Origin: a phage
Sequence record: PZ618370.1
Length of the DNA stretch: 39,720 bases
Direction: 5' to 3' (one strand)
A program made the translations under genes and the position numbers. Below are positions 753 to 39,720 of this stretch, in pieces. The stretch's first letter is position 1. Every line of letters starts with the position of its first letter. The notes below the pieces were generated by a model, which searched no databases, was not told the DNA's origin, and saw nothing but the letters and a program-made list of their open reading frames with translations.

Positions 753-863
753 GCTTCCGTCAACACGACACGGCAACAACCGGATAGTGAAGACGCCGGG
801 TCATCCCGGTTAAGTAGACAGCCTGATAAGTCATACGAACAACAGGCAGATGACAGAAAGTAG

Positions 864-3495: not shown

Positions 3496-3518
3496 ACTTA
3501 ACTATCACTATAGGACTC
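3496..3518 (+). promoter_or_regulatory. phage RNAP promoter (ACTTAACTATCACTATA-GGACT), upstream of the RNAP gene
   Basis: 15/17 match to the promoter family consensus; +1 G at 3513; initiating GGA rather than GGGA. Confidence 0.6.
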
Positions 3519-3587: not shown

Positions 3588-6269
3588 ATGAGCGTCATCT
3601 CTATTGACAAACACGACTTCTCTGACGTGTCGAATGCCATTGAGCCATTTAACCTGCTGGCTGACCACTACGGGCAAGACCTTGCAGTCAAGCAGCTTCA
3701 GCTTGAGCATGAGGCATACACTGAAGGCGAGCGACGTTTCATCAAGAACCTTGAGCGCCAGACTGAGCGCGGGGAACTGGCAGACAATCAGGTCGCCAAG
3801 CCTTTGATGCAGACTCTGGTCCCTAAGATTGCGCAAGCCGTCAAGGAGTGGCACGAAGGAAAAGACGGGAAGCTGTCAACCTCTCGCCCAAGCGTAGCGT
3901 TTACCATGCTGAGCACTGATGAGAAGGCTGTCAAAGACCGCTCTCTGCTCATCTCCTGTGGGTCTGCTGCGGTTATCATACTGAAGGTCATCCTCTCCAA
4001 GCTGGTCAAGCCTGAAGGGATACCGATTACACCGATGGCCTCAGCGATAGGCCGCACACTTGAAGATGAAATCCGCTTCGGTCGCATTCGTGACAAGGAG
4101 CGGGAGCACTTCAAGAAGGCGATAGCTGAGAACCTGAACAAGCGAGCCGGGGCATCCTACAAGAAAGCCTACATGCAAGCGGTTGAAACCTCCATGCTGG
4201 AGCAGGGTCAACTGGAAGATGCGTGGGGAAATTGGAGTCCTACCGAGGCGGTACACGTTGGCATCAAGATGCTTGAGATTGTCATCCAGTCTACACAACT
4301 TGTCGAGCTTAAGCGTTATGGTGCTGGCAATGCATCGGCTGACGTTGAGATGGTCCACCTGTCAGACTTCTGGGTAAAGAAGATGGCACAACGTGGATTC
4401 AGCCTCGCGGGTATCGCGCCAGTATATCAACCTTGCGTAGTACCACCTAAGCCGTGGACTGGTGTCGTGGGTGGTGGGTATTGGGCCAAAGGTCGCAGAC
4501 CGTTGCCGCTGATTCGATTAGGGTCTAAGTCTGCGGTGGCACGTTACGAAGACGTGTACATGCCTGAAGTCTACGACGCTGTGAACATCATTCAGAATAC
4601 ACCTTGGAAAGTGAACAAGAAGGTTCTGGACGTGGTGAACATGGTCGAGAAGCTGAACAACACACCTATTAAAGACATCCCGCAAATGGAACCACTGAAG
4701 CCTGAGGACTATGCAGGTGAGACTGAAGAGGAACTCAAGGCATGGAAGAAAGCTGCTGCTGGTATCTATCGTCGCGAGAAGGCCCGAAAGTCACGCAGAT
4801 TGTCACTGAGCTTTATCGTTAACCAAGCGAACAAGTTTTCTCAGTTTAAGGCCATCTGGTTTCCGTACAACATGGATTGGCGAGGTCGCGTCTACGCTGT
4901 ACCGATGTTCAACCCTCAGGGTAACGACATGCAAAAAGGCCTCCTGACTCTTGCGGTCGGCAAGCCTATTGGTTCCGATGGCTTCAAATGGCTGAAGGTA
5001 CACGGTGCAAACTGTGCGGGTGTAGATAAAGTAACCTTCGAGGAGCGCATTAAGTGGGTGGAAGACAACCATGACAACATCATGGCTACCGCTAAAGCAC
5101 CGATGGATAGCATTGAGTGGTGGGGCAAGTTAGGCTCCCCGTTCTGCTTCCTTGCGTTCTGCTTCGAGTATGCTGGCGTAATGCATCACGGATTGTCTTA
5201 CTCATGCTCGCTGCCGATAGCGTTCGATGGGTCATGCTCTGGGATTCAGCACTTCAGCGCGATGCTTCGTGACCACATCGGTGGACATGCAGTAAACCTG
5301 ACGCCTTCCGGTAAGGTCCAAGACATCTACCGCATCGTGTCTGACCGCATTGAGGAGGAACTTAAAGTCCTGCTGGTTAACGGTACGGACAACGAGATGG
5401 TGACTCAAGAGGACAAGAAAACAGGTGAGATTACCGAGCGTCTTAAGCTGGGGACACGAGAGCTTGCGCGCCAGTGGCTTACCTATGGTATGTCACGAGA
5501 GGTCACTAAGCGTTCGGTCATGACTCTGGCATACGGGTCGAAAGAGTATGGATTCGCAGACCAAGTGTACGAGGATATCGTGATGCCAGCGATTGACTCA
5601 GGGTCTGGCGCTATGTTCACCGAGCCAAGCCAAGCATCTCGCTTCATGGCTAAGATGATTTGGGAAGCTGTTAGTGTGACCGTAGTTGCTGCGGTTGATG
5701 CGATGAAGTGGCTTCAAGGTGCTGCCAAGCTGCTGGCTGCTGAAGTGAGTGACAAGAACACAGGCGAAATCCTGAAGCCGTGCCTTCCTGTACATTGGGT
5801 CACACCCGATGGTTTCCCGGTCTGGCAGGAATACCGAAAGAAAGATACCACTCGTCTGAACCTGATGTTCTTAGGGTCATTCAACCTTCAGCCTACCGTC
5901 AACAGAGGCACGAAGAAAGAGTTGGACAAGCACAAGCAGGAGTCAGGCATTAGCCCGAACTTCGTCCACTCACAAGATGGTAGCCACCTCCGCAAGACTG
6001 TAGTCCACACGCACCGCAAGTATGGCGTGATGTCCTTCGCAGTGATTCACGATAGCTTCGGGACCATCCCGGCTGACGCTGAGTATCTGTTCCGTGGCGT
6101 CCGTGAGACGATGGTAGAGACCTACCGCGACAACGATGTGCTGCTTGACTTCTACGAGCAGTTTGAATACCAGCTTCACGAGAGCCAGCGCGACAAGTTG
6201 CCTGAGCTTCCGAAGAAAGGTAAACTGAATATCGAAGACATCTTGTCTTCAGACTTTGCATTTGCTTAA
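3588..6269 (+). CDS. 1: single-subunit DNA-directed RNA polymerase (T7 gp1 family, 893 aa)
   Basis: Full-length collinear similarity to T7 RNAP as recalled (SREVTKRSVMTLAYGSKE, HWVTPDGFPVWQEY, NFVHSQDGSHLRKTVV, IHDSFGTIPADA, C-terminal FAFA). Confidence 0.97.
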   Translation: MSVISIDKHDFSDVSNAIEPFNLLADHYGQDLAVKQLQLEHEAYTEGERRFIKNLERQTERGELADNQVAKPLMQTLVPKIAQAVKEWHEGKDGKLSTSRPSVAFTMLSTDEKAVKDRSLLISCGSAAVIILKVILSKLVKPEGIPITPMASAIGRTLEDEIRFGRIRDKEREHFKKAIAENLNKRAGASYKKAYMQAVETSMLEQGQLEDAWGNWSPTEAVHVGIKMLEIVIQSTQLVELKRYGAGNASADVEMVHLSDFWVKKMAQRGFSLAGIAPVYQPCVVPPKPWTGVVGGGYWAKGRRPLPLIRLGSKSAVARYEDVYMPEVYDAVNIIQNTPWKVNKKVLDVVNMVEKLNNTPIKDIPQMEPLKPEDYAGETEEELKAWKKAAAGIYRREKARKSRRLSLSFIVNQANKFSQFKAIWFPYNMDWRGRVYAVPMFNPQGNDMQKGLLTLAVGKPIGSDGFKWLKVHGANCAGVDKVTFEERIKWVEDNHDNIMATAKAPMDSIEWWGKLGSPFCFLAFCFEYAGVMHHGLSYSCSLPIAFDGSCSGIQHFSAMLRDHIGGHAVNLTPSGKVQDIYRIVSDRIEEELKVLLVNGTDNEMVTQEDKKTGEITERLKLGTRELARQWLTYGMSREVTKRSVMTLAYGSKEYGFADQVYEDIVMPAIDSGSGAMFTEPSQASRFMAKMIWEAVSVTVVAAVDAMKWLQGAAKLLAAEVSDKNTGEILKPCLPVHWVTPDGFPVWQEYRKKDTTRLNLMFLGSFNLQPTVNRGTKKELDKHKQESGISPNFVHSQDGSHLRKTVVHTHRKYGVMSFAVIHDSFGTIPADAEYLFRGVRETMVETYRDNDVLLDFYEQFEYQLHESQRDKLPELPKKGKLNIEDILSSDFAFA

Positions 6270-6281
6270 CAGGAGATAGTT

Positions 6282-6482
6282 ATGAAATTTGCACACAAGC
6301 AGACTGGCGTTAATGGTGGGACTCAAATCGTGACCGTAACAGAACACAACGGGAAGGGTCTGGTGAAGACCACGGTCATCCCCACCGAGATGTCAAAGCA
6401 GCTTAACGTCCCGTTCAAGTGGCTGGTTAAGCAGGTTGAGCAGACACACGAGCAAGCTCTTAAAGAGGCGGCAACCAAATGA
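6282..6482 (+). CDS. hypothetical protein (66 aa)
   Basis: ORF with SD AGGAG; lies between gene 1 and the phi1.1 promoter where T7 has no gene (T3-like phages carry extra genes here). Confidence 0.5.
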   Translation: MKFAHKQTGVNGGTQIVTVTEHNGKGLVKTTVIPTEMSKQLNVPFKWLVKQVEQTHEQALKEAATK

Positions 6483-6560: not shown

Positions 6561-7040
6561 ATGTTTGGTAAGTCAAAACTCAAAGCACAAATCAAAGAGT
6601 TGAGCATGAAGGCGGCATACTTGGAGCGAGTAGTAATAGTCATGGATAAGGACAACGAGAGGCTGAAGGTTAAACTTGCTGAATCAGAGCGTAAGCGCCT
6701 AACACCACCAGCGGCTGTATTTAGCAAGCGTATGGTAGGCATCAAGTTCAAGGCACTGTTCAACGGGATGTACCAACCGACTGAGTTCAAGACTGGACCG
6801 GGTAACTGCGGTAAGAACGTTAAGCACTTCACAACATCGAAGACTGAGCGCACTATTACCATTCACCAGCACCACGTACACGGGTCTCAGAAAGACTTTG
6901 AGTATCGACTGAGCGACATCGACGGTCGAATCCAGTATGACTACGAGCTGGTTAAGGTCTATGGTGAGGAGGCTGAACAGGAACGTATAAACCAAGACTA
7001 CCGCAACAGACAGCGCTTACACCCTAAACTATCACTATAG
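6561..7040 (+). CDS. hypothetical protein (159 aa, N-terminal coiled-coil-like segment, His-rich centre)
   Basis: ORF with SD GAGG; stop codon TAG lies inside the phi1.1 promoter core; no confident homology. Confidence 0.55.
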   Translation: MFGKSKLKAQIKELSMKAAYLERVVIVMDKDNERLKVKLAESERKRLTPPAAVFSKRMVGIKFKALFNGMYQPTEFKTGPGNCGKNVKHFTTSKTERTITIHQHHVHGSQKDFEYRLSDIDGRIQYDYELVKVYGEEAEQERINQDYRNRQRLHPKLSL

Positions 7041-7045
7041 GATTA
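7023..7045 (+). promoter_or_regulatory. phage RNAP promoter (phi1.1-like)
   Basis: CCTAAACTATCACTATA-GGATT; +1 G at 7040. Confidence 0.8.
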
Positions 7046-8698: not shown

Positions 8699-8731
8699 AA
8701 CCCAGTGGTCTTCGGACTGCTGGGTTTCTTT
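8699..8731 (+). terminator. intrinsic terminator (T7 TE-like) after ligase
   Basis: 12-bp stem AACCCAGTGGTC/GACTGCTGGGTT with UUCG tetraloop, followed by a T-rich tract TCTTTGCGTTTGG. Confidence 0.75.
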
Positions 8732-8753
8732 GCGTTTGGGGATCCAGCCTGAC

Positions 8754-8776
8754 CCTAATTTATCACTATAGGACAA
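8754..8776 (+). promoter_or_regulatory. phage RNAP promoter, divergent (CCTAATTTATCACTATA-GGACA)
   Basis: Two mismatches to consensus at -11/-10; +1 G at 8771. Confidence 0.6.
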
Positions 8777-9507: not shown

Positions 9508-9585
9508 GTGGTGCCGGGAGATGTACGAGAAGACTCTCAACCCGGACTACATTACGTTATACAACCAATGGAAGGAGCGCGGTTT

Positions 9586-9744
9586 GTGACTGAGGTTGAG
9601 AAGAAATACATCGTGGAGCTTGAGGGTCGAGTTCAGTCCTTCGAGGTTCCGGTGTACGCAAAGTCTCTTGAAGAGGCTACCCTGAAGTCCCAAGAGTATG
9701 AGGACGCTGGGTTTGTGGTCGGACGGATTCGTCCTGAGACCTAA
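9586..9744 (+). CDS. 2: host RNA polymerase inhibitor (T7 gp2-like)
   Basis: [14 protein letters not shown]...[10 protein letters not shown] matches T7 gp2 SFEVPIYAETLDEA...AGFEVTRVRP as recalled. The track ORF starts at GTG 9508 without SD; GTG 9586 follows a perfect AAGGAG (9572-9577). Start uncertain (ATG 9568 also possible). Confidence 0.6.
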
Positions 9745-9762
9745 ACTATCACTGTAGGGCAG
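9740..9762 (+). promoter_or_regulatory. phage RNAP promoter (phi2.5-like)
   Basis: CCTAAACTATCACTGTA-GGGCA; G at -3; +1 G at 9757. Confidence 0.7.
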
Positions 9763-11948: not shown

Positions 11949-12164
11949 GTGATTAAACTTATTGAATTTCTTGGTCGTCTGGTGGTGCGTGGCTATCGTC
12001 GTGCTGCGGTTATGGAACGAAAGGTAGCAGAGAAGGCTGCTGAAGGTGCGGCTGATGCTGCTGCTCTGGCTGACAAGCTGACCATCGAGTCACTGGAAGC
12101 TGGTATGAAGGCACGCCAAGCCGACACCAAAGCTGACCAGTTGGCTCAGTTCTTCAAAGCCTAA
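11949..12164 (+). CDS. hypothetical protein (71 aa, Ala/Lys-rich)
   Basis: GTG start after SD AAGGAGA; stop TAA is part of the following promoter. Confidence 0.45.
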   Translation: MIKLIEFLGRLVVRGYRRAAVMERKVAEKAAEGAADAAALADKLTIESLEAGMKARQADTKADQLAQFFKA

Positions 12165-12182
12165 ACTATCACCTTAGGGATG
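12160..12182 (+). promoter_or_regulatory. phage RNAP promoter, divergent (phi4-like)
   Basis: CCTAAACTATCACCTTA-GGGAT; mismatches at -4/-3; +1 G at 12177. Confidence 0.5.
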
Positions 12183-18292: not shown

Positions 18293-18315
18293 ACTAAACT
18301 ATCACTATAGGGACT
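18293..18315 (+). promoter_or_regulatory. phage RNAP promoter (phi6.5-like)
   Basis: ACTAAACTATCACTATA-GGGAC; +1 G at 18310. Confidence 0.85.
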
Positions 18316-18376
18316 TTAGGACCTAAGATATGACTATAAGATAGACTTTAGTCTTAACTTAAAGAGGAGATTCAAG

Positions 18377-19549: not shown

Positions 19550-21118
19550 ATGGCTGAACGTGAAGGGTTCGCTGCTGAAGGAGCCAAAGCGGTCTATGAC
19601 CGACTGAAGAACGGTAGACAGCCATATGAGACACGCGCTCAGAACTGTGCTGCTGTCACTATCCCGTCACTGTTTCCTAAGGAGTCCGACAACTCGTCCA
19701 CTGAGTACACAACTCCGTGGCAAGCTGTGGGCGCTCGCTGCTTGAACAACTTGGCTGCAAAGCTGATGTTGGCATTATTCCCTCAGTCACCGTGGATGCG
19801 ACTGACAGTATCCGAATATGAGGCCAAGACCTTGAGTCAGGACTCAGAGGCGGCTGCTCGTGTTGACGAAGGGCTGGCTATGGTCGAGCGTGTGTTGATG
19901 GCCTACATGGAGACTAACAGTTTCCGAGTCCCATTGTTCGAGGCGCTGAAGCAGCTTATCGTCTCAGGTAACTGCCTGCTCTACATCCCTCCACCAGAAC
20001 AAGGAACATACAGTCCTATGCGAATGTACCGCTTAGTGTCATACGTTGTTCAACGTGATGCTTTCGGTAACATCTTACAGATTGTGACTCTCGACAAGGT
20101 AGCGTTTAGTGCTCTACCGGAAGACGTGAAGTCTCAACTAAACGCAGACGACTATGAGCCTGACACAGAGCTGGAAGTGTATACGCACATTTACCGTCAG
20201 GACGACGAGTATCTGCGCTACGAGGAAGTGGAAGGTATTGAGGTAGCAGGGACCGAGGGTTCTTACCCACTGACTGCATGTCCGTACATCCCAGTACGAA
20301 TGGTTCGACTGGATGGTGAAGACTATGGTCGTTCTTACTGCGAGGAGTATCTGGGAGACCTGAACTCGCTGGAGACGATTACAGAAGCTATCACCAAAAT
20401 GGCTAAGGTAGCCTCCAAGGTGGTGGGCCTCGTTAACCCGAACGGTATCACGCAACCTCGTCGTCTGAATAAGGCGGCTACAGGTGAGTTCGTGGCTGGT
20501 CGAGTTGAGGACATCAACTTCCTGCAACTGACGAAGGGTCAGGACTTTACGATTGCCAAGTCGGTGGCTGACGCTATCGAGCAACGTTTAGGCTGGGCCT
20601 TCCTTCTTAATAGTGCTGTTCAGCGTAATGCCGAGCGTGTCACTGCTGAAGAGATTCGTTATGTTGCTGGCGAACTGGAGGCGACCTTAGGTGGCGTGTA
20701 CTCGGTACAGTCACAAGAGCTTCAGTTGCCTATAGTCCGTGTGCTGATGAACCAGCTTCAGTCTGCTGGCATGATTCCAGACCTTCCGAAAGAAGCGGTA
20801 GAGCCTACGGTATCCACTGGTCTGGAAGCGTTAGGTCGTGGTCAGGACTTGGAGAAGCTAACTCAGGCGGTTAACATGATGACTGGTCTTCAGCCGCTAT
20901 CTCAGGACCCTGACATCAACTTGCCGACCCTTAAGCTGCGACTCCTGAACGCTCTGGGTATCGACACAGCTGGCCTACTCCTTACGCAAGACGAGAAGAT
21001 TCAGCGCATGGCTGAGCAGTCGTCTCAACAGGCAGTTGTCCAAGGTGCTAGTGCTGCTGGTGCCAACATGGGTGCTGCTGTAGGTCAGGGAGCTGGTGAG
21101 GACATGGCTCAAGCCTAA
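19550..21118 (+). CDS. 8: portal (head-to-tail connector) protein gp8
   Basis: 522 aa (T7 536 aa), SD AAGGAGG, position before scaffold/capsid. Confidence 0.93.
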   Translation: MAEREGFAAEGAKAVYDRLKNGRQPYETRAQNCAAVTIPSLFPKESDNSSTEYTTPWQAVGARCLNNLAAKLMLALFPQSPWMRLTVSEYEAKTLSQDSEAAARVDEGLAMVERVLMAYMETNSFRVPLFEALKQLIVSGNCLLYIPPPEQGTYSPMRMYRLVSYVVQRDAFGNILQIVTLDKVAFSALPEDVKSQLNADDYEPDTELEVYTHIYRQDDEYLRYEEVEGIEVAGTEGSYPLTACPYIPVRMVRLDGEDYGRSYCEEYLGDLNSLETITEAITKMAKVASKVVGLVNPNGITQPRRLNKAATGEFVAGRVEDINFLQLTKGQDFTIAKSVADAIEQRLGWAFLLNSAVQRNAERVTAEEIRYVAGELEATLGGVYSVQSQELQLPIVRVLMNQLQSAGMIPDLPKEAVEPTVSTGLEALGRGQDLEKLTQAVNMMTGLQPLSQDPDINLPTLKLRLLNALGIDTAGLLLTQDEKIQRMAEQSSQQAVVQGASAAGANMGAAVGQGAGEDMAQA

Positions 21119-21136
21119 ACTATCACTATAGGAACA
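21114..21136 (+). promoter_or_regulatory. phage RNAP promoter (phi9-like)
   Basis: CCTAAACTATCACTATA-GGAAC; +1 G at 21131. Confidence 0.8.
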
Positions 21137-22112: not shown

Positions 22113-22135
22113 ACTAAACTATCACTATAGGGAGA
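22113..22135 (+). promoter_or_regulatory. phage RNAP promoter, strongest consensus copy (phi10-like, class III)
   Basis: ACTAAACTATCACTATA-GGGAGACC; +1 to +6 GGGAGA identical to the T7 class III initiating sequence. Confidence 0.9.
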
Positions 22136-23412: not shown

Positions 23413-23416
23413 TTGA

Positions 23417-23455
23417 AACCCCTTGGGTGCCTTCGGGTGCTTGAGGGGTTTTTTG
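23417..23455 (+). terminator. late intrinsic terminator (T7 Tphi-like)
   Basis: AACCCCTTGGGTGCCTTCGGGTGCTTGAGGGGTTTTTTG: imperfect long hairpin with UUCG loop and T6 tract, near-identical in design to T7 Tphi as recalled. Confidence 0.85.
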
Positions 23456-26643: not shown

Positions 26644-26693
26644 AAGGGCCTATAGATTTACCTTAACTATCACTATAGGGACTATAGGCCCTT
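26644..26693 (+). repeat. 12-bp perfect inverted repeat AAGGGCCTATAG / CTATAGGCCCTT bracketing the phi13 promoter
   Basis: Reverse complement checked by hand; arms 26644-26655 and 26682-26693; position matches T7 RNase III site R13. Confidence 0.7.
26661..26683 (+). promoter_or_regulatory. phage RNAP promoter (phi13-like)
   Basis: CCTTAACTATCACTATA-GGGAC; +1 G at 26678. Confidence 0.85.
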
Positions 26694-33000: not shown

Positions 33001-33941
33001 TCCTGTCTGACATCGTGGAGCATAGTCTGACTGGCAGTAAGCGTCGGTTCGATGACCGCTGGCTGAAGACCGCTGGTATCTCTGACGAGCAGTGGAAGGG
33101 CATTAAGTCCCTAATCCGTGAGTCAGTGACTCGTGGTCCAGACGGGAAGTACACCATCAAGGATAAGAAGGCGTTCAGTCAGGACCCAAGGGCTATGGAC
33201 TTATGGCGTATGGGTGACACCATCGCTGATGAAACGTTACTCCGGCCCCACAAGCTGTCTAACATGGACGCCAAGGCTTATGGTCCTCTCGCTAAGACTG
33301 TCCTTCAGTTTAAGAACTTCGTCATCAAGTCCATAAACGGTAGAACCATGCGTACCTTCTATAACGCCACGAAGAACAACCGAGCGATTGACGCTGCACT
33401 ATCGACCGTGATGTCTATGGGTCTGGCTGGTATCTACTACATGGCTCAGGCGCACGTCAAGGCTTATGCTATGCAGGATGGTCGAGACCGTGACTACCTT
33501 AAGCAAGCTCTGGACCCGACGATGATTGGTTATGCGGCTCTGTCTCGTAGTTCACATCTGGGTGGCCCACTCGGGGTAGCTAACATTCTGGGTGGCATCG
33601 CTGGGTATGAGGACACCAAGATGCTCCGTTCGTCTATCCTACCTCGTTCGCCTACAGAGAAGCCTGAACGTGCCATCTCGTATGGTGCAGCTACAAGTGG
33701 CCCTGTGATGAATGTTGTTGGTAACTTCTTGGAGCAGGTTCCAGCTTTTGGATATGCTGCTAACGTTGGTGCTTCGGCTTACAACTTGGCTGGCTACCTC
33801 AAGGCTGATACTCGGGTAAACGAGAGAGACTACATGACCGGGATGTATAACACCTTCCGTGAACTGGTTCCGAACGACCCGATTACTCAGAAGTTGCTAC
33901 TGGGAACGTTTGAGGAGCAAGGTATCCACATCAAGGACTAA
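30054..33941 (+). CDS. 16: internal virion protein D (gp16) with a non-canonical N-terminal domain
   Basis: 1295 aa; middle and C-terminal regions collinear with T7 gp16 (ETARN, SPTGMQSGASGK, NPAMFG, GTYVPHVY, SRPEVK, DKAYGISH, FFAKNAYMG.QN.TEI, RSP.TK.LNGTTNYLLDA, AMDLWR, LRPHK, NNRAIDAALS); first ~130 aa lack the SLT motifs of T7. Confidence 0.92.
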   Translation: MATRGIRNNNPGNIRVSKDQWEGMTGDDGAFVTFDSPESGVRALGKNLLSYGRQGYDSIEKIINRWAPPNENDTQAYIDSVVAATGIPATQSLDLSNPDTLSSLAQAISFHETGSRYNPEVYQKGVARALNGISPKTPPVSANVFDALTEGLKAKPKVALGGNLPTAAGLNIEGQAPEAPNESFGEMFYKATGETMQEREDRSTWFGFGAATEAEVKNSMVGVAIRAGQTEDSLDVIGDVYNPTRWNNHKWTRDELDQIRNAGVLPQYYGVITGGSPQNLTELINLALENQKLDQEKAKAGIGAQLAAGVIGAGVDPLTYVPIAGQVGKGGKLVNKMFTVAAQSGALAGVSEMARTSVAGGDAHVAEAILGGALFGGGMTAIADGLGRALGRNTNEFAGPATRLEARETARNVDGQDLSRLPIQEGEQTFSHQGVKFADVQNEPGSVRLEDGSILIGENPLNPKTRQVFDEVIEPERAAAGVNLGGLTEIGLKLLRSENPEIRGVAADLVRSPTGMQSGASGKIGTTASDVFERLRAVDHRFYNDIDDAVTEALKDPYFQTAFWRDSAAFRQDIYQRVSMAIEDGSGNLKAELTPGELKVYGLLKNQFDAKREMMENPAMFGRPDAKSIFPGSRFKGTYVPHVYSNQMKELYIKELGSPEALQEAIKKSWLTSYASRPEVKKRVDEALLEADPTLTADGLAAAVDKYANDKAYGISHTEQFERSSVMEENINGLVGLENNSFLEARNLFDSDMSIVLPNGQTFSVNNLREWDMDKIVPAYNRRVNGDIAIMAGTGKTTKDMKDLVETLMNKAGDDGKLKGEVSTLRDTLKILTGRARRDGADDAAFATVMRTMTDLSFFAKNAYMGVQNLTEIGGMLARGNVRALLHGVPMFRDLAFRNKKVGASEIKDLHNVIFGKELDDSIRPSKQDVIDRLRSYSDLGRGAATALGTAKYYTGELAVRSPFTKVLNGTTNYLLDAGRQGFLSDIVEHSLTGSKRRFDDRWLKTAGISDEQWKGIKSLIRESVTRGPDGKYTIKDKKAFSQDPRAMDLWRMGDTIADETLLRPHKLSNMDAKAYGPLAKTVLQFKNFVIKSINGRTMRTFYNATKNNRAIDAALSTVMSMGLAGIYYMAQAHVKAYAMQDGRDRDYLKQALDPTMIGYAALSRSSHLGGPLGVANILGGIAGYEDTKMLRSSILPRSPTEKPERAISYGAATSGPVMNVVGNFLEQVPAFGYAANVGASAYNLAGYLKADTRVNERDYMTGMYNTFRELVPNDPITQKLLLGTFEEQGIHIKD

Positions 33942-33959
33942 ACTATCACTATAGGAAAC
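33937..33959 (+). promoter_or_regulatory. phage RNAP promoter (phi17-like)
   Basis: ACTAAACTATCACTATA-GGAAA; +1 G at 33954. Confidence 0.8.
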
Positions 33960-34004: not shown

Positions 34005-36191
34005 ATGTCCACGATTACACAATTCCCTGCAGGAAACACTCAGTACAGGATTGAGTTCGACTACCTATCCAGAACGTTTGTTGTTGTTACGCTGGTGAAT
34101 AGCTCTAACCCTACCCTGAACCGTGTACTGGAAGTTGGTCGAGATTACCGATTCCTTAATCCAACGATGATTGAGATGTTGGTTGACCAATCAGGTTTCG
34201 ACATCGTTCGTATTCACCGTCAGACTGGAACTGACTTAGTGGTAGACTTCAGAAATGGCTCAGTGTTGACAGCCAGTGACCTGACCAATGCAGAGCTTCA
34301 GGCTATCCATATTGCAGAAGAGGGCAGAGACCAAACGGTTGACTTAGCGAAGGAATATGCTGATGCTGCTGGGACCTCTGCCGGCAACGCTAAGGATAGC
34401 GAGGACGAAGCACGACGAATCGCTGAGGATATCAAGGCATCTGGTCGAATTGGCTATATTACCCGTCGCTCCTTCGAGAAAGGCTTCAACGTTATAACAT
34501 GGAACGAGGTACTGCTATGGGAAGAGGATGGTGAGTATTACCGTTGGGATGGTACGCTTCCAAAGAACGTTCCTGCTGGTACAACTCCTGAAACTTCCGG
34601 TGGGATTGGGGTAGGTGCGTGGGTTCTCGTAGGCGATGCTTCACTTCGTATCGCACTAGCTTCTGAAGTAGGGGCATCAATGGTGTCCCGTAACGGCTCA
34701 CCCCTAGGCAGAATCATTCGTGCATCACTCTTCGAATACCTTACCGAATCAGATCAGCGAGCATTACTTACTACTTCTGGAGCAGTAGTTGCAGCGGATT
34801 ATGCGTTAAAAGCAGCTATAGCTGCTGGAGTTATGGTCCTTGATATACCACGGAACCTAGGGATTATTGAACTTGGTAGAGATCCAGCGACGCTTCCATT
34901 GGGGTTCTCGCTTATAGGATGGGGCTGCCGTCGACCTTATACTGTATCAGATGACAGTAGCTTCCTTAATTGCGGGGTAGTTATCCGCGTAGCAGCTGGG
35001 GCAAGTTTTCCTTTTTATTCAACTGGTCGTCATGTGTTCCGGGATATTGTTTTTGACGGGCGGGATAAAACAACGTATCTTTTTTATTCCACAGATAGGT
35101 ATGCTGAGTTCAACGGTACTCGACTAGAGGGGTGCGGAATTTACCGTTTTGCTATTGGTATTGGTTGGAATAAGGGAGGATCAGCAAGATACATCGCAAC
35201 AGTGAAAGCACACTTTTGTTCCCTATCTGGAAATGGGGACACAGTTAAAAATTTAATAGACTCTATGATGATTGGTTGCACAATCAATGCCAATGACCGA
35301 GGCGTAGCTCTTGTCGGCGGGGCAAATAGTAACTTTTTCGGAGAATGCCGGAACGAATGGAACGCTGGTGATAACTGGTATGCGCATGAATCAATAGAAA
35401 ACCAGATTTCAGGTGAACTGTGCGACAGGGCTGGGCGAGGCGGGGTAGTTGCTGGCAAGGATTCGTCATGGATTGTAACCGGAGTTGTCGTCGCTCGCAG
35501 TGGTGCTAATCAACCAATGAATGATAACTACTCAGCAAACTTTGTTATTATTGATAACGGTAAAATCGTAATCTCTGGGGTGAGAACCAGAAACGGAGCT
35601 AACGAGGGGGGTCAGGGTGGGACAAATTCTCCATCGTTTAACGTATCGGTTCTCGGTTCTGGTAATGGGACACTCCTGGTATCTGGAAGTGATATGACCG
35701 GTTTTGTTACTTCGGTAATTAACCAGAAGGCTCCTACATTAAATAAAGCTATAACCGGAAATCTCGGTATGGATGATGATGTAAATGTTGGAATGTCTCA
35801 GGTTATTAAAGGAAGACGGATTATTGGTTCACAGTCATCGGGTAGATTGCAAGACACTGTGGGAGCAACGTTATCATTCACTAAGCCCAATATTGCGCAA
35901 GATTTATATGCTACATACATCACCAGAGCCATATTGATTGAGTGTAGAATTGGCAATACTGCACAAGGTGATTATATAAAAATACCTATAGGGGTAAGGC
36001 ACGAAAACAATTTCTATCTTGATGTCATTACCAGTGGAATTGTCGCAAGCTCTGAAAGGATTGGTCTTTCAGGAACTGGGGTTACTGTTAGCTTATCTAT
36101 TGATAGTTCAACAGGTGACATCTCAGTTACGTTAACTAGCGTTGATGGGTTGGTGAGAGATGTTAATGTCTCTTTACTGCCATCAATTTAA
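34005..36191 (+). CDS. 17: tail fiber/tail spike protein gp17: T7-like N-terminal adaptor fused to a large beta-helix-like C-terminal domain (possible depolymerase)
   Basis: N-terminal ~150 aa resemble T7 gp17 (F.YL.R.FVVVTL, VDF.NGSVL.A.DL, Q..H.AEE.RD). The remaining ~580 aa are Gly/Asn/Ser/Thr/Val-rich with repeated G-x-G and NxxG segments, unlike the T7 gp17 C-terminus. C-terminal ~1 kb is visibly AT-richer. Confidence 0.9.
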
Positions 36192-39168: not shown

Positions 39169-39191
39169 ACTTAACTATCACTATAGGGAAG
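39169..39191 (+). promoter_or_regulatory. phage RNAP promoter near the right end (phiOR-like)
   Basis: ACTTAACTATCACTATA-GGGAA; +1 G at 39186. Confidence 0.85.
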
Positions 39192-39529: not shown

Positions 39530-39563
39530 TGCAATCATGGTAACGATTCATGAGCGGAAGACC

Positions 39564-39604
39564 TAAGGTCAGTACGTGGATAAAGACTCACTCTACTGAC
39601 CTTA
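39564..39604 (+). repeat. palindromic hairpin element at the inner boundary of the right terminal repeat (11-bp arms TAAGGTCAGTA / TACTGACCTTA, 19-nt spacer)
   Basis: Same arms as 86-126, but the spacer is the reverse complement of the left-end spacer. Confidence 0.8.
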
Positions 39605-39720
39605 GCTACTGTAGTCAAGGACTTTAGGTAACACCATTCAGGCTAACCTATGGTCTACCTACTGATTGGTTCACTGGTCGTCATCCGATGGTCTCAGACC
39701 TACGGTCCTTGACCTACAGT
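39594..39720 (+). repeat. right copy of direct terminal repeat
   Basis: Identical to 116-242; runs to the last base of the window. Confidence 0.8.

Follow-up and report, generated by a model that had tools for sequence, protein, structure and literature searches.

K1F-type promoters and their RNA polymerase in a Kayfunavirus genome

The eleven copies of a 23-bp element in the phage DNA analysed here (record PZ618370.1; the whole stretch of 39,720 nt is referred to as the window) are almost certainly the class II/III promoters of a K1F-like Kayfunavirus of the T7 group, read by the phage's own RNA polymerase (3588-6269). The specificity of promoter and polymerase is already known: it is of the K1F/Kayfunavirus type, which has been described, tested and used in synthetic biology. 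This departs from a sequence-only reading of the same DNA, which had implied an undescribed specificity. K1F, CR44b and Ro45lw have the same consensus and the same base-contact residues, and the specificity that they share has been published and tested. Nor did the premise that no characterised phage carries this consensus survive a database and literature check, which found K1F and Ro45lw; K1F has been exploited as an orthogonal pair since 2012 (PMC3458549).

Promoter sites in the window

We found eleven plus-strand copies of (A/C)CT(A/T)AACTATCACTATAGG (Table 1), at exactly the starts that the sequence-only reading had listed. Their occurrence is not random: a 21-nt consensus allowing up to three mismatches gave 10 plus-strand matches, all at these starts, compared to an expectation of 0.00 from 100 shuffles. 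The copy at 8754 is the eleventh member and was found through a 14-nt core with two mismatches. In a weight matrix over -17 to +3, built from the 11 sites and scored on both strands, the sites themselves reach 29.3-35.2 bits, and no other position exceeds 13.2 bits; the promoter family therefore has exactly 11 members. Neither further or weaker members (nothing scored between 13.2 and 29.3 bits) nor a phiOL-like copy at the left end was found with this matrix on either strand.

Over -17 to +6, the consensus in the window is (A/C)CT(A/T)AACTATCACTATAGG(G/A)A, with ACTA at -12 to -9. The published consensus element, CTWAACTATCACTATAGG, is present in eight exact copies and in three with one or two mismatches. 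Three copies deviate: the one at 8754 has TT at -12/-11, the one at 12160 has CT at -4/-3, and the one at 9740 has G at -3. The first two had been singled out before, and the third had gone unflagged. The full GGGAGA at +1 to +6 had been noticed at 22113, and this is the only copy that has it.

All 11 copies are co-oriented with the genes and lie at gene ends or between genes, upstream of gene blocks as the sequence-only reading had it. Overlap with the preceding stop codon, which it had called frequent, is seen in five of the 11, with the stop codon inside the promoter: the TAA within CTAAAC terminates ORFs at 9744, 12164, 21118 and 33941, and ORF 6561-7040, of the gene 1.05 family, stops at the TAG within TATAGG of the 7023 copy. 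The positions of the copies correspond to phi1.1, 1.6, 2.5, 4, 6.5, 9, 10, 13, 17 and OR of T7, T3 and K11. The general features of T7-group promoters are all present: a 23-bp element with a CACTATAG-type core, sites at gene boundaries in the same orientation as the genes, and a Tphi terminator downstream of the capsid gene.

Separately, a degenerate promoter-like sequence with 13.2 bits (CCTAAGATATGACTATAAGATAG, 18322-18344) lies 29 nt after the phi6.5 copy and is kept in K1F (17206) and CR44b (15920). The fold of this region was no better than that of shuffled sequence (z = 0.0).

Table 1. Promoters, RNA polymerase gene and terminators in the window, with matching sites in K1F and CR44b.
Feature	Position	Strand	Sequence	Score (bits)	Remarks
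Promoter before gene 1	3496..3518	+	ACTTAACTATCACTATAGGACTC	33.6	92 nt upstream of RNA polymerase gene start; identical to K1F 2474 and CR44b 1814 (annotated 'predicted promoter')
Gene 1, single-subunit RNA polymerase, 893 aa	3588..6269	+			Full-length alignment to T7 RNAP structures, E = 0
phi1.1-equivalent promoter	7023..7045	+	CCTAAACTATCACTATAGGATTA	35.2	Identical to K1F 5552 and CR44b 4876
TE-like intrinsic terminator	8699..8736	+			Directly after ligase gene (1.3); 12-bp stem, T-rich tail
phi1.6-equivalent promoter, deviant	8754..8776	+	CCTAATTTATCACTATAGGACAA	29.3	Just after TE-like terminator
phi2.5-equivalent promoter	9740..9762	+	CCTAAACTATCACTGTAGGGCAG	32.5	G at -3; overlaps stop of ORF 9508-9744
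Promoter before gene 4 (primase/helicase), deviant	12160..12182	+	CCTAAACTATCACCTTAGGGATG	29.7	
phi6.5-equivalent promoter	18293..18315	+	ACTAAACTATCACTATAGGGACT	35.0	Identical in K1F 17177 and CR44b 15891
phi9-equivalent promoter	21114..21136	+		35.2	Overlaps gene 8 stop; identical in K1F 19998 and CR44b 19106
phi10-equivalent promoter before major capsid gene	22113..22135	+	ACTAAACTATCACTATAGGGAGA	35.0	Identical in K1F 20997 and CR44b 20112
Tphi-like terminator, gene 10/gene 11 gap	23415..23455	+			Terminator scan; 17-bp stem, T6 run, z = -3.4
phi13-equivalent promoter	26661..26683	+		34.2	Identical in K1F 25321 and CR44b 24684
phi17-equivalent promoter	33937..33959	+		34.8	Overlaps gene 16 stop; identical in K1F 32597
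phiOR-equivalent promoter downstream of gene 19	39169..39191	+		33.8	K1F 38852 differs after +2 only

Relatives and classical phages

The genome is that of a Kayfunavirus. Hundreds of phage records matched when the first 25 kb of the window served as query, and 92 of them span 80% or more of that length. Identity is about 88-95% for the best, and many have been assigned to Kayfunavirus. With the polymerase region alone, 174 records show 90-95% identity, and the genes are arranged as in the T7 group.

In phage K1F (NC_007456; Studiervirinae), the type phage of Kayfunavirus, the same core is matched 11 times, in the order seen in the window. The copies before genes 1, 1.1, 6.5, 9, 13 and 17, six of the 11, do not differ between the two genomes at any of their 23 bp; the phi10 copies were compared over 22 bp and are identical there. 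K1F even shares the two most deviant spellings, ACTGTAGG before gene 2.5 (K1F 8499) and CACCTTAGG before gene 4 (K1F 10866), which CR44b also has (7470 and 9838, respectively). Differences from K1F are few: the phi1.6 copy reads AATTTATC in the window and AAGCTATC in K1F (the site is CCTAAGCTATC in both K1F and CR44b), and single-base changes occur at -17 or +3 in three copies. Unrelated to the promoters, the tail spike and several early genes also differ.

CR44b has the same promoter pattern in the first 24.7 kb, and its record marks each 23-bp site as 'predicted promoter'. The Ro45lw record likewise annotates the corresponding sites as promoters and calls one of them phi1.6; the minimal promoter of Ro45lw, ACTTAACTATCACTATAGGGA, is identical to the window copy at 39169 and fits the consensus. 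In IMG/VR, about 25 contigs of 39-40 kb each contain the 18-nt consensus several times. Three other contigs, whose lengths are unlike those of T7-type phages, contain it once or twice: L044 (IMGVR_UViG_2698536640_000010, 72.9 kb), L071 (29.3 kb) and L081 (29.1 kb). These matches could be due to chance, chimeric bins or fragments.

We drew the classical promoter consensuses from annotated records. Over -17 to +6, the T7 consensus is TAATACGACTCACTATAGGGAGA, with CGAC at -12 to -9; the T3 consensus is AATTAACCCTCACTAAAGGGAGA, with ACCC; and the K11 consensus is AATTAGG(G/A)C(A/C)CACTATAGGGAGA, with GG(G/A)C. The SP6 consensus (-17 to +4) is ATTTAGGTGACACTATAGAAG, with GGTG. The ACTA of the window falls outside all four specificity classes, and a 15-nt K1F core has no match in the T7, T3, K11 or SP6 genomes. 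The sequence-only reading had therefore been right to see promoters of the phage's own single-subunit polymerase whose -12 to -9 is unlike T7, T3, K11 and SP6. It had given the correct tetramers for the window and for T7, while its 'CCCT' for T3 and 'GTGA' for SP6 are really -11 to -8. This one-base register slip leaves the conclusion that the specificities differ unchanged.

Compared to T7, likenesses and differences can be separated along the element. From -8 to +2 the window reads TCACTATAGG, which equals the consensus of the annotated T7 record and bears out the earlier statement that -8 to -1 are the same. From -17 to -9 it reads (A/C)CT(A/T)AACTA, whereas T7 has TAATACGAC; the difference at -17 to -13 was absent from the sequence-only reading. 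The window also resembles T7 in the 23-bp architecture, in where the promoters lie along the genome, in having a Tphi-type terminator and in the fold of its polymerase (64% identity in a full-length alignment). On the other hand, the window has 11 promoters versus 17 in T7, without phiOL and with a copy directly before gene 1, and its polymerase differs at key residues described below.

The RNA polymerase

The polymerase is nearly that of K1F: 871 of 893 residues are identical (98% by BLASTP; 97.5% in the multiple alignment). In the same multiple alignment, identity is 93.6% to Ro45lw and 63.6% to T7. The T7 residues in base-specific contact are R746, N748, R756 and Q758 (PMC11880802), which correspond to R756, N758, N766 and Q768 of the window polymerase. 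At these four positions the window, K1F and Ro45lw all have R/N/N/Q, compared to R/N/R/Q in T7, R/D/R/Q in T3 and R/K/N/K in K11. With T7 position 754 included, the residues at 746, 748, 754, 756 and 758 are the same in the window, K1F and Ro45lw, the glutamine of T7 at 754 being a serine in the K1F group.

Along the whole hairpin, the sole difference between the window and K1F is a conservative one, R for K at window residue 773 (T7 763); between the window and Ro45lw two residues differ, at T7 750 (L for M) and T7 765 (S for T). The sequence-only reading had pointed to the polymerase stretch TVNRGTKKELDKHKQ as the determinant of specificity. This stretch exists (window 770-784, equivalent to T7 760-774) and the hairpin does differ from that of T7, but as a determinant it is misplaced because it forms the distal half of the hairpin and shares only two residues with Q744-I761. 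The relevant hairpin change relative to T7, at the base-contacting residues, is R756 to N. Outside the hairpin, the N-terminal loop region (T7 93-101) is unlike that of T7 and is followed by an 11-residue insertion, which fits the different -17 to -13 segment of the promoters.

The copy at 3496 lies upstream of gene 1, so that the polymerase could transcribe its own gene. A promoter directly before gene 1 is also present in K1F (2474), CR44b (1814, annotated) and Ro45lw (2401, a TAAAGG variant), which makes it a trait of the genus rather than a novelty. In the T7, T3 and K11 records, no phage promoter is annotated between the leftmost one (phiOL) and gene 1.

Published function of the K1F type

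Function of this promoter and polymerase type has been established in several systems. Temme et al. (2012) put the K1F hairpin (the equivalent of T7 Q744-I761) into T7 polymerase and the K1F-subfamily -12 to -7 into the T7 promoter; the pair was active, with 17-fold induction, and was described as highly orthogonal (PMC3458549). The Q744-I761 swap alone sufficed to transfer K1F specificity to T7 polymerase (PMC3458549). In the cross-talk measurements of Segall-Shapiro et al. (2014), K1FR gave 2448 on PK1FR, where the T7 fragment gave 19 and the T3 fragment 6.7; K1FR itself gave 260 on PT7 and 43 on PT3 (PMC4299498 supplement). These engineered T7(K1F)/K1FR pairs have the same hairpin segment as the window polymerase, TTRLNLMFLGSFNLQPTV, together with the K1F-subfamily -12 to -7, and are orthogonal to T7 and T3 (PMC3458549, PMC4299498). 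They are chimeras, with a T7 scaffold and a T7 promoter background, such that -17 to -13 and the N-terminal loop are those of T7 and not of K1F. The PK1F promoter of Temme and colleagues reportedly reads TAATAACTATCACTATAGGGAGA.

Native components have been used as well. Takatsuki et al. (2025) worked in vitro with purified Ro45lw polymerase, defined the minimal promoter given above and determined by sequencing that +1 is G; initiation is at the G of ACTTAACTATCACTATA-GGGA (PMC12272871). In E. coli and Halomonas, native K1F polymerase and PK1F are used together for orthogonal expression and mutagenesis (PMC12218169). For another Kayfunavirus genome, published in 2026, eight repeats of the element CTWAACTATCACTATAGG were reported and read as promoters (PMC13298934), and a covariation study of T7-like polymerases has K1F as one named specificity cluster (PMC11880802).

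Predicted transcription programme

From homology to T7, we infer how the window promoters are bound and where RNA starts. The polymerase would bind -17 to -5 as duplex DNA. Its N-terminal loop would read -17 to -13, which is (A/C)CT(A/T)A here and TAATA in T7, and its C-terminal specificity hairpin would read -12 to -7 in the major groove. ACTA at -12 to -9 would pair with the R/N/N/Q of the hairpin, the arginine that reads -9 in T7 being an asparagine here. TATA at -4 to -1 would then melt, and RNA would begin at the first G of GG(G/A). Judged by departure from consensus alone, the deviant copies at 8754, 9740 and 12160 may be weaker than the others.

The signals around the promoters support an ordinary T7-style programme. 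The strong TE-like terminator marks the end of the host-transcribed early region, and TE is annotated at the same position in T7 and T3. Host polymerase would transcribe this region as far as the terminator near 8700. The phage polymerase would then transcribe the replication genes from the putatively weaker, deviant copies before genes 1.6, 2.5 and 4, and the virion and lysis genes from the consensus copies before genes 6.5, 9, 10, 13 and 17. The transcript from phi10 (the copy at 22113) has a T7-like 5' stem-loop at its start (leader fold, z = -3.1). The hairpin at 23415-23455, at the position of an annotated terminator in T7, T3 and K11, would cause partial termination, such that phage-polymerase transcripts started at phi9 and phi10 end there or are attenuated. 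A stable hairpin also follows the phi1.1-equivalent copy, where T7 and T3 have an RNase III site.

Alternative readings

Could the specificity nevertheless be new, distinct from that of every characterised phage? Both -12 to -9 and the polymerase hairpin do differ from those of T7, T3, K11 and SP6, but neither the consensus nor the base-contact residues differ from those of K1F, CR44b and Ro45lw, and the specificity of K1F and Ro45lw is published and tested; we consider this extremely improbable. A narrower proposal is that the phage has a sub-specificity of its own, in which the K-to-R change at the hairpin tip or changes in the N-terminal loop region (for example K92 or G124, where K1F has P and E) shift the preference relative to K1F and the TT of the phi1.6 copy reflects that shift. 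It is true that 22 of 893 polymerase residues differ from K1F and that the phi1.6 copy differs from those of K1F and CR44b at -12/-11. However, 10 of the 11 promoters are unchanged from K1F across -16 to +2, so the preferred sequence has not moved, and the differing hairpin residue lies outside the specificity-carrying Q744-I761. We regard a sub-specificity as very unlikely. Taken more loosely, as either a slightly shifted preference compared to K1F or a self-amplifying polymerase loop through the copy before gene 1, the proposal still earns very little credence from us: the features in question are shared with described relatives or differ from them only marginally.

The repeats might also be something other than promoters, such as RNase III sites, replication origins, packaging signals or homing-endonuclease targets. 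Stable hairpins follow some of the copies, and T7 promoters of the phiOR and phi1.1 type also prime replication. Yet the element itself forms no hairpin, contains the T7 TCACTATAGG core and is strictly co-oriented with the genes. It also drives in vitro transcription by the Ro45lw polymerase (PMC12272871), and replication priming would be an additional role rather than an alternative one. On the strength of core, orientation and in vitro transcription, we rejected RNA-processing or replication elements as the primary function, and we give a non-promoter role a vanishingly small chance. The reading as K1F-type promoters for the phage's own polymerase is the one that we retain.

The value of these results lies mainly in the correct annotation of the genome as a Kayfunavirus, with an 11-site promoter map and an early and a late terminator. 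The K1F-type pair is a standard orthogonal part already, and what the genome adds is a natural variant, in which the polymerase departs from that of K1F by 22 substitutions and one promoter, phi1.6, also varies. This variant could feed covariation datasets such as that of PMC11880802, and it opens no new question.

Other features of the genome

The ends of the window carry repeats. Positions 1-127 are the exact reverse complement of 39563-39689, the first 211 bases are 94% self-palindromic, and 116-242 are an exact direct copy of 39594-39720. Related genomes start at about window position 298, and the K1F terminal-repeat motif, CCTCAAGTCTCCCCATAGG, is at 314. Given these terminal repeats, the palindrome and the start of the relatives, the window looks like a circularly closed, permuted assembly. 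Its first 115 bases are probably a fold-back artefact and not phage sequence.

Several early genes are also of note. Like T3, the window encodes a protein of the S-adenosylmethionine lyase family at the gene 0.3 position (1113-1565; Pfam E = 2e-39), whereas gene 0.3 of K1F is labelled 'ocr-like anti-restriction' in its record. A 244-aa early ORF at 2005-2739 lies approximately at the place of the gene 0.7 kinase of T7 and T3 but is much shorter; it had no Pfam match, and K1F has no ORF of such size there. Between gene 1.05 (6282-6482) and the phi1.1-equivalent promoter, ORF 6561-7040 encodes 159 aa and belongs to the T3 gene 1.05 family (Pfam); the equivalent gap has no annotated gene in K1F or CR44b.

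The K1F endosialidase is absent from the window, and gene 17 (34005-36191) encodes a modular tail spike. Its first ~650 nt match the N-termini of Kayfunavirus tail fibres, whereas nt 656-2187 share 89-94% identity with tail spikes of the unrelated Escherichia phage SP5M (72.9 kb) and Klebsiella phage SBP (49 kb). Only two phages, Escherichia phage SP7 and Klebsiella phage SEA1f, gave matches over the full length (97%). This pattern of matches points to horizontal exchange of the putative receptor-binding or depolymerase module of gene 17.
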